Positions 26,938-29,376 of a stretch of 29,958 nt of DNA are shown here, in pieces. Each line of letters opens with the position of its first letter. The stretch's first letter is position 1. The notes below the pieces were generated by a model. The model searched no databases. It had not been told where the DNA came from and was given only the letters and a program-made list of their open reading frames with translations. Location: the NCBI GenBank assembly GCA_019637195.1, contig JAHBWA010000114.1, positions 1-29,958 of the forward strand. Reading direction: 5' to 3'. The stretch comes from Labilithrix sp. (GTDB lineage: Bacteria > Myxococcota_A > Polyangia > Polyangiales > Polyangiaceae). Both the position numbers and the translations under genes were made by a program.

Positions 26938-27465
26938 ATGAGGGCCGAGTGTCCTGAAAGCGACGATGCCCTCTTCGAGCTGCGCTTCGCCCCGAGCGTC
27001 GCGCTCGTCTCGACGGTTCGTCGCTTCGTGAGCGATTTCTACGACGAGCTCCTGCAGGATCGCGACGCGAGCCACCGGCTCGGCATGGCGACCCACGAGA
27101 TGCTCGAGAACGCCGTGCACTACTCGTCGGACCACCGCTCGGAGCTCGTCGTCTCCCTGCACCGGGTCAGCGGCCAGTTCCTGGTCACGATCCGGACGAC
27201 CAACCGCGCCACCGACGAGCGCCTCACGAAGGTCCGGAGAGCGCTCGACGAGGTCGTGACCGCGGAGGACCCGATGGACCTCTACAACCAGCTCGTTCGC
27301 CGGGCCGCCAAGCGCACGGACGGCGGCTCCGGGCTCGGCCTCGGCCGGATCCGCGCCGAGGCGGATCTCGCGCTCTCCTACTCGATCGAAGGCGACACCC
27401 TCGTCCTGACGGCGGAGGGTCGCTTCCCACCGCGCCCCGAAACGCAACTCACGGAGTCACGATGA
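26938..27465 (+). CDS. HATPase_c-type partner-switch kinase, SiaB-like/anti-sigma-regulatory-factor-like, 175 aa.
   Basis: N-box ATHEMLENAVHYSS, G-box TDGGSGLGLGRIRAEADL. Overlaps the next gene by 4 nt (ATGA). Confidence 0.7.
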   Translation: MRAECPESDDALFELRFAPSVALVSTVRRFVSDFYDELLQDRDASHRLGMATHEMLENAVHYSSDHRSELVVSLHRVSGQFLVTIRTTNRATDERLTKVRRALDEVVTAEDPMDLYNQLVRRAAKRTDGGSGLGLGRIRAEADLALSYSIEGDTLVLTAEGRFPPRPETQLTESR

Positions 27466-27863
27466 CCGCTGTCGACATCCCTCGCATCGACGCCAACGAC
27501 CTGCGCGCCGCGTCGAGCTACCTCGACGGCAACCTCTCGTTGCAGTTCGCGGGGAGCGCCGACTCGCGGTCTCAAGGGGCGATCGAGGCGATGCTCGGGC
27601 GGGTGCACGCCGAGGCGCTCCGGCTCGGCGTGCCCGAGGTCTCGGTCGACTTCCGCGATTGCGACTTCGTGAACTCCTCGTGCTTCAAGGCGTTCGTCGT
27701 CTGGCTGGAGCAGATCCAAGAGCTCGAGACCGACCAGCAGTACCGCCTCCGCTTCTACTCCGACGACACCAAGGCTTGGCAGAGGAGGAGCCTGCAGGCG
27801 CTCTCGTGCTTCGCGATCGAGCTCGTCCACATCGAGTCGAAGCCCAATCGTGGCAGCAGTTGA
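27462..27863 (+). CDS. SiaC-like DUF1987-type small protein (the kinase/phosphatase substrate in Sia-type switches). Tentative.
   Basis: 133 aa. VSVDFRDCDFVNSSCFKAFVVWLEQIQEL...YRLRFYSDD parallels the DUF1987 pattern (LxLDLxxxYxNTSSxKxxxxIL...RWxYD). Its 3' end overlaps the cheA GTG start by 14 nt. Confidence 0.5.
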   Translation: MTAVDIPRIDANDLRAASSYLDGNLSLQFAGSADSRSQGAIEAMLGRVHAEALRLGVPEVSVDFRDCDFVNSSCFKAFVVWLEQIQELETDQQYRLRFYSDDTKAWQRRSLQALSCFAIELVHIESKPNRGSS

Positions 27864-29376
27864 TCTCCCGACCAGCATCGTCGCCCAGTTCCGGGCTGCG
27901 AGCATCGAGCGTCTCGGACGCATCGAGACCGCGTGGGCGGCGCTCACGCAGCGCGTCGGCACGGCGGAGGGCGAGCGCGACCTGTTCCACGACGTCCATA
28001 CGCTGAAGGGCGAGGCGCGCCTCGTCGGGTTCGCCGACGTCGTCCTCATCACCCAGCGCCTCGAGGACCTCCTCCTGGCTGCGCGCCGCCGGCGCTACCG
28101 CGTGACCGAGGACGTCGACGTCCTCGCCACGATGGCGATCCAGTTCATCCGGATGCTCCTGCGCAAGCGCGCCGGCGCGTCCCAGGGCGGGATCGACATC
28201 AACGGCTTCCTCAAGCAGATCGACGAGGTCCTCGTCGAGTGGCCGCGGCAGTCCGAGGCGCCCGACTCGAGCGGCGCCTACACGATGCGCCCGACGGAGG
28301 GCGGCAAGGTCTCGCTCGCGGTGCGGCAGCGCCTCGGGAGCGCGGCGACGCAGATGTACCTCGAGCTGCTCTCGTCGAAGAGCCCGCGCCTCCGGCGCGC
28401 CTGGGAGATCCTCGCGGGCGAGCTCGCGCAGCTCGACGCCGTCGCCCTGATGCCGCTCGTCCGCCGTCACGCCGCGTCGGCGAAGGACCTGGCGATCGAG
28501 CTCGGCAAGGAGATCGACGTCGCGATCGACGGGCCCGAGATCAAGGTCGGCGTCGAGATCCTCGACACGATCCACGGCGCGCTGCTGCACACGCTGCGCA
28601 ACGCCGTCGATCACGGCATCGAGACCCCCGAGGCCCGCGTCGCCGCGAACAAGCCACGGCGCGGGAACATCGTCGTTCGCTTCGGCATCGCGGAGGACTC
28701 CATCGGGCTGACCGTGCAGGACGACGGCGACGGGATCGACCTCGACGCCATCCGCCGCCGCGCCGAGACGCTCGGGCTCCTCTCACCGGAGGACGCCCTG
28801 GCCGCCCCGGACGCGACGCTGCTCGACCTCGCCTTCGCGCCGGGCTTCTCGGTCCGCGAGTCGGTGAGCACCATCTCCGGGCGCGGCATCGGCCTCGACG
28901 CCGTGCGCGCGACCATCGAGCGGCTCGGCGGGACGATCTCGCTCGAGTCGAAGCGCCAGATCGGCGTCACCGTGACGCTCCGGCTGCCGCAGTCGCGCCG
29001 CATCGTCGAGGTGCACCGCCTGCCGTCGACGCAGCCCGGCCTGGTCTTCGCGGTCCCGACGACGTGGACCGTGCGGACCGAGCGACGCCCGGACGCGCTC
29101 GATCCCGCCGCCGTGATGGGCCTCGGCCGCATCCACACGGGCCACGCCTCCACGACGCTCACGTACCTCGTGCTCTCGCGCGACGGCGACGACTACCCGA
29201 TCGTCGTCGGCGGCTCGGTCTCGCGGGTCGGCGCGGCGCGGCTCTGCCCGACCTCCCCCGACGACGGTCTCGAGGTCGTCACGATCGACAACGAGCCCGT
29301 CATCCTCATCCGCCCCGACACGTTCTTCCCGCCGGCGAGCAGCCGCCGGCCCGAGCTGACGCCCGGGCGCGCATGA
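27850..29376 (+). CDS. cheA: Chemotaxis histidine kinase CheA: Hpt (P1), dimerisation/HATPase_c, and CheW-like (P5).
   Basis: P1 with phospho-His motif FHDVHTLKGEARLVGF. N-box LLHTLRNAVDHGIE. G-boxes VQDDGDGIDL and SGRGIGLDAVRATIERLGGTISLES. C-terminal CheW-like beta domain ...LVFAVPTTWTVRTE...YPIVVGGSVSRV. Confidence 0.85.
   Translation: MAAVDLPTSIVAQFRAASIERLGRIETAWAALTQRVGTAEGERDLFHDVHTLKGEARLVGFADVVLITQRLEDLLLAARRRRYRVTEDVDVLATMAIQFIRMLLRKRAGASQGGIDINGFLKQIDEVLVEWPRQSEAPDSSGAYTMRPTEGGKVSLAVRQRLGSAATQMYLELLSSKSPRLRRAWEILAGELAQLDAVALMPLVRRHAASAKDLAIELGKEIDVAIDGPEIKVGVEILDTIHGALLHTLRNAVDHGIETPEARVAANKPRRGNIVVRFGIAEDSIGLTVQDDGDGIDLDAIRRRAETLGLLSPEDALAAPDATLLDLAFAPGFSVRESVSTISGRGIGLDAVRATIERLGGTISLESKRQIGVTVTLRLPQSRRIVEVHRLPSTQPGLVFAVPTTWTVRTERRPDALDPAAVMGLGRIHTGHASTTLTYLVLSRDGDDYPIVVGGSVSRVGAARLCPTSPDDGLEVVTIDNEPVILIRPDTFFPPASSRRPELTPGRA

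Follow-up and report, generated by a model that had tools for sequence, protein, structure and literature searches.

A 29,958-nt stretch of a high-GC contig from Labilithrix sp. (Myxococcota; JAHBWA010000114.1, positions 1 to 29,958; hereafter the window) encodes a serine-kinase-like protein of 175 aa and a STAS-fold protein of 133 aa directly upstream of a CheA-like histidine kinase. We refer to the two small proteins as K175 and S133, or K and S for short, to the loci compared with the window as L001 and so on, and to database proteins as P0245 and so on. Known targets of partner switches are sigma factors, diguanylate cyclases, FlgM and secretion, and receptor arrays are known to govern chemotaxis-type kinases. 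We propose, with a probability of roughly 0.5, that K175, S133 and the PP2C phosphatase encoded upstream of them constitute a partner switch of the SiaA/SiaB/SiaC type with the CheA-like kinase as its output, which suggests that a serine-phosphorylation switch, and not a chemoreceptor, controls this kinase. The proposal currently rests on comparative genomics and predicted structures.

We first describe the gene arrangement. The TGA stop codon of K175 overlaps the ATG of S133 as ATGA, with a GGAG Shine–Dalgarno-like motif located 6 nt 5' of the ATG, and the stop codon of S133 (27861-27863) lies 14 nt within the open reading frame (ORF) of the CheA-like kinase. The Hpt domain of the latter begins at residue 10, and the GTG at 27850 is the sole in-frame start codon that precedes it. 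The GC content at third codon positions (GC3) of the three ORFs is 0.90-0.96, as is typical for real genes of this genome. A sequence check reproduced all of the ORF sizes, the two overlaps and the motifs that had been quoted in the initial annotation of this DNA, including LENAVHY (residues 56-62) and GGSGLGLG (residues 129-136) in K175, and VDFRDCDFVNSSCFKAFVVWL and YRLRFYSDD in S133. The PP2C gene ends 81 nt upstream of K175, and a PP2C phosphatase, a GHKL kinase and a STAS protein, the gene set of a partner switch, are encoded together. A promoter and terminator scan of positions 21000-29958 gave nothing useful.

We then investigated how far this arrangement is conserved. A genome scan with one genome per species yielded 129 stretches encoding relatives, and the locus counts given below refer to the best 80 of these 129, almost all of which belong to Polyangia (Labilithrix, Polyangium, Kofleriaceae, Haliangiales and Nannocystaceae). 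In several genomes the locus is present more than once. As a result, K was found directly upstream of S in 78 of the 80 loci, with a spacing of -4 nt in 61 of the 65 loci where it was measurable, and 68 of 71 K ORFs ended in ATGA or GTGA. In addition, four independent natural K-S fusions of about 290-304 aa were detected (P0245, P0285, P0296 and P0359). Because of this gene order, the overlap and the natural fusions, K and S are an obligate pair. A PP2C, the second commonest neighbour domain, was detectable within 10 kb in 41 of the 80 loci, with sensor N-termini that differ by clade (such as CHASE8-HAMP, or forms of about 600 aa beside multihaem cytochromes), and the PP2C of the window matched the NCBIfam SiaA model across the catalytic domain (E 5e-15).

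The S-CheA junction was examined in the same loci. When the gene after S was sorted by clade cluster, a CheA-like kinase was the commonest (19 loci), followed by a 236-260-aa protein without known function (9), a protein of about 500 aa in loci where a hybrid histidine kinase precedes K (7), a single-domain receiver (6), a PP2C (3) and a GAF-GGDEF protein (1). By tblastn, with adjacency defined as a CheA-like start between -60 and +150 nt from S, the CheA-like gene lay directly downstream of S in 18 of the 73 loci with at least 1.5 kb of downstream sequence, and it was present within 10 kb in 27 of the 80. For the 17 adjacent loci whose start call was usable, S and the CheA-like gene overlap by as much as 53 nt or are separated by up to 31 nt; the -14 nt overlap of the window is found in eight Labilithrix-type loci, L001, L002, L004, L005, L006, L008 and L011 among them, and L007 has -17 nt. 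The K-S-CheA arrangement is thus conserved and not a product of chance, and the 133-aa ORF, whose conservation as a separate gene the initial annotation had set as a check, is maintained as a separate gene tightly coupled to the CheA-like gene.

Four loci separate the STAS protein from its kinase, and the first three of them are the most informative. In L051, L057 and L064 (Kofleriaceae/Haliangiales), a K-S-receiver operon faces a second operon, in which another S paralogue without a kinase of its own is placed directly upstream of a CheA-like gene (0-14 nt, or a 4-nt overlap). All three of these paralogues carry Ala at the position of S72, the predicted phospho-acceptor discussed below (NAS, NAA and SAA), and phospho-serine loss thus tends to occur where the operon has no kinase. 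L071 (Paraliomyxa) reads receiver-S-CheA and has no K gene within 10 kb. Since these four loci keep S beside CheA in the absence of K, it is the STAS protein, not the kinase, that stays with CheA, and the comparative evidence favours an action of S133 on the CheA-like kinase. These loci also bear on the main alternative, in which K175 itself would be the binder, with components and output unchanged: K175 would hold the CheA-like kinase, dephosphorylated S133 would draw K175 off, and K175 would then phosphorylate and release S133. In keeping with it, co-translation runs from K through S to CheA, and K175 has its best Foldseek E-values against SpoIIAB, UsfX and RsbW, each of which makes direct contact with its target. 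However, K next to CheA without S was not seen among the loci, unlike the reverse, and the loss of the phospho-serine from the kinase-less S paralogues would be expected if S binds the effector; we therefore consider this alternative unlikely, though not negligible.

The assignment of K175 was based on hidden Markov model scans of the window genes against Pfam and NCBIfam. K175 passed the cut-offs of PF13581 HATPase_c_2 (30.5 against 27.4 bits) and PF19788 DUF6272 (27.4 against 26.6 bits), and most of its relatives are annotated with both. Its best NCBIfam match was slr1658_superfam, with an E-value of 1.6e-13 and 50.5 bits, under the cut-off of 100 bits that applies to both slr1658 and slr1659. 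Within the family, neither the N box (H53-E54...N58) nor the G2 box (G130-S-G-L-G134) varies. The AlphaFold2 (AF2) model of K175, with a predicted local distance difference test score (pLDDT) of 90.6, was searched with Foldseek, which returned SpoIIAB (E 1.8e-6) and SiaB (6kko_A; E 1.4e-5), the latter with the top template modelling score (TM-score) of 0.60, in addition to UsfX and RsbW; K175 also resembles SiaB in length. Searching PDB chains with the K175 and S133 sequences gave no match, and a K175 family profile run against the PDB missed SiaB and SpoIIAB and returned chance matches only.

S133 itself had no Pfam match at E ≤ 0.1. Among 27 relatives, 19 touched STAS_2 (PF13466) at E ≤ 1, with a best value of 3.2e-5, and five touched STAS (PF01740), and the match of S133 to the NCBIfam slr1659 superfamily (E 3.6e-5, 24.0 bits) was again under the cut-off. 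The predicted structure, which has six strands and three helices, falls clearly within the STAS fold and is SiaC-like. S72 is invariant in 27 of the 27 aligned relatives, and every one of the 74 STAS ORFs taken from the genome loci has the motif NSS[C/S]. In the profile alignment, FVNSSC of S133 falls on FMDSSG of SpoIIAA, so that S72 corresponds to Ser58 of SpoIIAA. In the model, helix 2 spans residues 72-86 with S72 at its N-terminus, and the phosphopeptide of SiaC, LLYLN-T68-SSIK, likewise lies at the start of helix 2, its N-T68-S-S paralleling N-S72-S of S133. Ser72 is therefore the predicted phospho-acceptor of S133. The family is sizeable: 414 relatives were found at E ≤ 1e-3 among 90%-identity clusters, and a search of 1.84 billion 50%-identity representatives gave 1158 members (794 at E ≤ 1e-10), nearly all of them stand-alone proteins of 120-135 aa. 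This analysis defines a large and so far uncharacterised family of kinase/STAS pairs in Myxococcota.

The initial annotation had presented the two proteins as a SiaB/SiaC-like kinase-substrate pair in which S133 looks like DUF1987, and had proposed to look for a DUF1987- or STAS-like fold and for a conserved Thr or Ser in the NSS motif. By fold, the pair is indeed of the SiaB/SiaC kind, and both the STAS-type topology and the conserved serine, equivalent to T68 of SiaC and Ser58 of SpoIIAA, were recovered. The assignment to sequence families did not survive. PF09345 (SiaC/DUF1987) was touched by only three of the 27 S133 relatives, at E ≥ 0.12, and DUF1987 membership was rejected; S133 is best described, from its sequence and model, as a STAS-superfamily protein with SiaC-like topology that is not a sequence member of DUF1987. 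Similarly, K175 scored 19.9 bits (E 4.4e-4) against SiaB_fam (NF038262), for which the cut-off is 85 bits, and its nearest named families are DUF6272/HATPase_c_2 and, below cut-off, slr1658/slr1659.

In the third protein, His50 of the Hpt/P1 domain lies in VHTLKGE, and the P4 ATPase domain is intact, retaining its N, G1, F and G2 boxes. H50 in VHTLKG, HxxRNAVDHGIE, DDGxG, PGFS and SGRGxGLDA are invariant or nearly so in the alignment. Pfam recognised Hpt and HATPase_c only, in the window protein and in seven distant relatives, and none of these eight members matched P2, P3 (H-kinase_dim) or CheW/P5 at E ≤ 0.05-0.1. The family profile matched CheA P4 at E 5e-61, and E. coli and T. maritima CheA at about 1e-60, with an alignment that covers late P3, P4 and about 20 residues of P5, corresponding to residues 309-532 only of E. 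coli CheA. The C-terminal region of about 120 residues gave an hhalign probability of 0.05% against a CheW sequence, a negative result of limited weight. The protein is thus a CheA-type kinase without detectable receptor coupling, which fits with the genes around it, since no receptor or CheW genes were found. The domain scans identified no methyl-accepting chemotaxis protein (MCP), CheW or CheR in any window gene scanned; CheB-like and CheY-like genes are present.

To place these genes in context, we took a census of the two genes on either side of the K-S pair in 29 diverse loci (112 proteins), in which the top 25 families were each seen at least twice. Receivers (16), PP2C (13), HATPase_c (12), Hpt (8), HAMP (5), HypF (4), sigma-54 activators (3) and GGDEF (2) were among them, and sigma-70, MCP, CheW and CheR were absent from the top 25. 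A canonical chemotaxis pathway was rejected from the lack of MCP, CheW and CheR in both the window genes scanned and the top 25 families of the census, together with the lack of a detectable CheW-like P5. The census also speaks to the idea of an ordinary RsbW/RsbV-like anti-sigma and anti-anti-sigma pair that is merely co-transcribed with the CheA-like gene, its sigma factor being encoded elsewhere. The folds of K175 and S133 are those of SpoIIAB/RsbW and SpoIIAA/RsbV, and some sources call relatives anti-sigma regulatory factors. However, no sigma-70 family appeared among the top 25 of the census, K175 is nearer in size and TM-score to SiaB, which controls no sigma factor, and the only sigma gene found in the window is of the extracytoplasmic function (ECF) type and lies 23 kb from K175 and S133 (3053-3526, minus strand); it is probably unrelated. 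The ECF class is not known to be controlled by SpoIIAB/RsbW-type kinases. We regard an anti-sigma pair as very improbable.

In the partner switch that we propose, K175 would phosphorylate S133 at Ser72, and the PP2C, in the role of SiaA or RsbU, would strip the phosphate from S133. In the Labilithrix locus, the RsbT-like kinase, freed by an RsbR/RsbS stressosome-like complex, would probably switch the PP2C on. Unphosphorylated S133 would bind the CheA-like kinase and alter its autophosphorylation or phosphotransfer, and phosphoryl groups would flow from His50 to the CheY-like, CheB-like and LuxR-type receivers, possibly via the stand-alone Hpt protein. The analysis establishes the folds and motifs, the coupling of the genes with its conservation, the co-occurrence with PP2C and the lack of detectable parts for receptor coupling, and from these we infer every phosphorylation event, the contact between S133 and the CheA-like kinase, the sign of the regulation and the link from RsbT to the PP2C. 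A wider scenario, which we put forward tentatively and hold to be possible rather than probable, is that a CheA-type lineage dropped its chemoreceptor/CheW input and came to be gated by a phospho-STAS protein, the Labilithrix relay running from the stressosome through PP2C, the STAS protein with its serine kinase and the CheA-like kinase to the receivers. The linkage to CheA may even be the ancestral state, because CheA-linked S proteins occupied several deep branches, and not one clade, of a rough neighbour-joining tree with midpoint rooting.

Several observations weigh against the proposal. The case for an action of S133 on CheA is drawn from gene order. No S-CheA fusion occurred among the best 150 representatives, and the K-S pair is not dedicated to CheA: most loci have another gene downstream, and the other neighbours of the pair include a receiver, a PP2C, a GGDEF protein, an upstream hybrid kinase, secreted or unknown proteins and an ABC-type gene. 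The G1 box DxGxG is absent from the K175 family, which has T-x-N89-R with an invariant Asn89 in its place; since the G1 Asp is missing, ATP binding and kinase activity should not be taken for granted, and kinase activity of K175 is likely, not assured. No RsbU_N domain was recognisable by Pfam in the PP2C of the window, and activation by RsbT would for this reason be an analogy only. Finally, in the 360-aa REC-PilZ-S fusion P0380 the S domain sits behind a receiver, and information could flow in the opposite way, from receiver to S.

This last fusion, together with the many CheA-less contexts of the K-S pair, is consistent with a switch acting downstream of or in parallel to the phosphorelay, as in HptB-HsbR-HsbA of Pseudomonas or CrsR/CrsA, with the target of S133 or K175 encoded elsewhere. 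In Shewanella, CrsR/CrsA is encoded within the che1 locus (PMC9855816), and partner-switch genes of che loci act on RpoS or FlgM (PMC9855816, PMC8457831). These systems resemble ours in tying partner-switch parts, genetically or functionally, to a phosphorelay (PMC9855816, PMC8457831). There, a receiver on the PP2C or kinase takes the phosphorelay input, and RpoS, FlgM or a cyclase serves as output. In contrast, Pfam detected no receiver domain on K175 or on the PP2C of the window, which an RsbT-like gene abuts instead; because of this lack of a receiver, the switch more likely feeds the CheA-like kinase, and a position downstream of it seems improbable to us.

Another precedent is CheS, which consists of STAS only and has been shown to bind CheA in S. 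meliloti (PMC12654446). Like S133, it is a small STAS protein encoded beside cheA, in the che operons of Sinorhizobium meliloti and Agrobacterium. S133 might by analogy bind the CheA-like kinase without gating it and, as CheS does, tune the choice of receiver or speed up receiver dephosphorylation, with K175 and the PP2C merely modulating this activity. The CheA/CheS complex is known to alter CheY binding (PMC12654446), and several receiver proteins are encoded at our locus. Nevertheless, CheS belongs to a receptor-coupled chemotaxis pathway, whereas the present locus has a kinase, a PP2C and a conserved phospho-serine, with no receptor, CheW or CheR gene found. CheS docks on the P2 domain of CheA, which the CheA-like kinase of the window lacks, and we know of no dedicated kinase or phosphatase for CheS. 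Such a role for S133 seems improbable.

We next compared the proposed switch with systems in which the enzyme under control is defined. In the SiaC-SiaD, HsbA-HsbD and BgrV-BgrR pairs, a STAS-type protein binds and controls an enzyme according to its phospho-state (PMC8457831). SiaABCD of Pseudomonas aeruginosa consists of the PP2C SiaA, the kinase SiaB, the DUF1987 protein SiaC and the diguanylate cyclase SiaD. In our case, the adjoining enzyme is a CheA-type histidine kinase and not a GGDEF cyclase, GGDEF neighbours occurring only in a few loci such as L072 and L016, and the thresholds of the SiaB and SiaC sequence families are not passed. Furthermore, SiaA is a membrane protein with a HAMP domain, while the PP2C here is soluble, has a GAF-like N-terminus and follows an RsbT-like gene. 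At the sequence level, the best matches of K175 and S133 are DUF6272 and slr1658/slr1659 (NF047703/NF047705), a regulator pair of Synechocystis, of which the regulatory gene slr1658 has a phenotype in iron recovery (PMC7555055). The scores are, however, far under the NCBIfam cut-off (50.5 and 24 against 100 bits), and for slr1658/slr1659 no mechanism is known and no CheA link is reported.

The genes upstream of K175 recall a stressosome. RsbR-, RsbS- and RsbT-type genes co-occur in the window, the gene set of a stressosome, and the genes of B. subtilis are ordered RsbT-RsbU-RsbV-RsbW-SigB. As in B. subtilis, a PP2C gene directly follows the RsbT-like gene and is succeeded by a kinase and STAS pair and an output gene. 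Unlike in B. subtilis, a CheA-like kinase stands where SigB would be, the kinase gene comes before the STAS gene (RsbV precedes RsbW in Bacillus), and K and S belong to another sequence family (DUF6272, slr1658/slr1659-like). The stressosome locus of Vibrio vulnificus is tied to two-component proteins, with the connecting step left open (PMC9237108); neither locus has a sigma factor, but the Vibrio locus is devoid of the PP2C/kinase/STAS relay between RsbT and the sensor kinase, which is complete in Labilithrix. The set of ten genes (RsbR, RsbS, Hpt, CheB, CheY, RsbT, PP2C, K, S and CheA) recurs in another order in L007 and L011 (cultured Labilithrix luteola DSM 27648), and the LuxR-type regulator is kept at the same position in L001 and L008. 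The stand-alone Hpt gene overlaps the cheB-like start by 4 nt. The initial annotation knew of no description of the configuration. A literature search, whose coverage was incomplete, likewise turned up no paper that couples a kinase/STAS/PP2C switch to a CheA-type kinase, nor any on DUF6272, with CheS (PMC12654446) and CrsR/CrsA (PMC9855816) as partial precedents. The coordinates of all of these features are collected in Table 1.

Table 1. Features of the K175-S133-CheA locus in the window, and natural alanine variants of S in other loci (positions numbered within each locus).
Feature	Position	Strand	Size and basis
K175, GHKL serine-kinase-like, SpoIIAB/RsbW/SiaB fold	26938..27465	+	175 aa; Pfam, AF2 model, Foldseek
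S133, STAS-fold, SiaC-like topology, presumed phospho-substrate of K175	27462..27863	+	133 aa
Ser72 codon (TCC), predicted phospho-acceptor, motif N71-S72-S73-C74	27675..27677	+	start of helix 2
ATGA start/stop overlap of K175 and S133 (translational coupling)	27462..27465	+	
14-nt overlap of S133 end and GTG start of CheA-like gene	27850..27863	+	
CheA-like histidine kinase	27850..29376	+	508 aa; Pfam Hpt 2.2e-10, HATPase_c 1.7e-14
PP2C (SpoIIE-type) phosphatase, weak GAF-like N-terminal region	25531..26856	+	441 aa; SpoIIE 5e-38, GAF_3 2.2e-3
RsbT-like GHKL kinase; stop abuts PP2C start codon	25120..25530	+	136 aa; HATPase_c 5.9e-10, HATPase_c_2 8e-8
CheY-like single-domain response regulator	24659..25075	-	Response_reg 4.2e-12
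CheB-like, receiver and methylesterase	23543..24643	+	366 aa; CheB_methylest 1.7e-41, Response_reg 3.5e-20
Stand-alone Hpt; GC3-based start 23271	23157..23546	+	longest ORF 129 aa; Hpt 2.3e-5
RsbS-like single STAS	22739..23188	-	149 aa; STAS 4.5e-12
RsbR-like, N-terminal domain and C-terminal STAS	21992..22660	-	222 aa; STAS 5.1e-13, residues 100-191
Response regulator with LuxR/GerE-type helix-turn-helix, candidate transcriptional output	21348..21974	+	Response_reg 5.8e-14, GerE 6.9e-3
S paralogue with Ala, natural non-phosphorylatable variant, L051	4377-4706	-	
S paralogue with Ala, natural non-phosphorylatable variant, L057	~12582-12959	-	
S paralogue with Ala, natural non-phosphorylatable variant, L064	10644-11006	-	

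Other neighbours of the K-S pair were also recorded. A gene for the hydrogenase maturation factor HypF follows K-S-CheA directly in L009 (about 11900-14225) and L012 (11884-14160), and K-S directly in L036 (10381-11952). Sigma-54 activators flank K-S-CheA in L014 (6621-8381 and 11297-12658) and L031 (3413-5044); one is FHA-type, one receiver-type (NtrC-like) and one has PilZ, and the CheA-like kinase may use them as transcriptional outputs. In Polyangium and Nannocystaceae, K-S is part of a conserved set (L025, 3727-9821; L039, 7629-15568; also L027-L035, L060 and L074-L077) with a protein of about 500 aa, a CarboxypepD_reg-domain protein, a multihaem cytochrome-like protein and a PP2C of about 600 aa, to which a hybrid HisKA kinase upstream of K is added in Nannocystaceae. 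This set may be a redox or extracellular-electron sensing module.

Elsewhere in the window, a second stressosome-like or partner-switch gene set occupies positions 13476-17117. It comprises a PP2C fragment or gene (13782-14309, plus strand; SpoIIE 2e-5), a HATPase_c_2 kinase (15302-15790, minus strand), an RsbR-like STAS protein (15902-16555, minus strand) and an unannotated 185-aa gene (16560-17117, minus strand). An unannotated 281-aa gene (2211-3056) lies downstream of the ECF sigma gene. A 924-aa protein (5083-7857, minus strand) matches MVP_shoulder (6e-14) and Vault_3 (7e-7) and is a bacterial relative of the Major Vault Protein of the eukaryotic vault particle, and a 265-aa protein (14347-15144, minus strand) has a TcdA/TcdB-type glycosyltransferase domain (3e-14). 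A flavin monooxygenase (12140-13525), an HMG-CoA reductase (17150-18208, minus strand), a cytokinin-dehydrogenase-like FAD (flavin adenine dinucleotide) oxidase (18638-20083, plus strand) and a prenyltransferase of the tryptophan dimethylallyltransferase type (20038-21255, minus strand) form a possible small-molecule biosynthesis cluster.

If the wider scenario holds, it would comprise the first partner switch that targets a histidine kinase, and the first defined path by which a stressosome reaches a two-component output. A serine switch directly gating a CheA-type kinase would bring together the two main phospho-signalling systems of bacteria, Ser/Thr and His-Asp, in a novel manner, and would offer a testable answer to how Gram-negative stressosomes reach two-component outputs, a question open for Vibrio vulnificus (PMC9237108). 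With its clear phospho-site, the kinase/STAS family comes with natural non-phosphorylatable paralogues as ready-made experimental controls. Should the linkage to CheA be ancestral, a large partner-switch family that had no name before, with over 1000 clusters at 50% identity, would have taken on its other outputs later.

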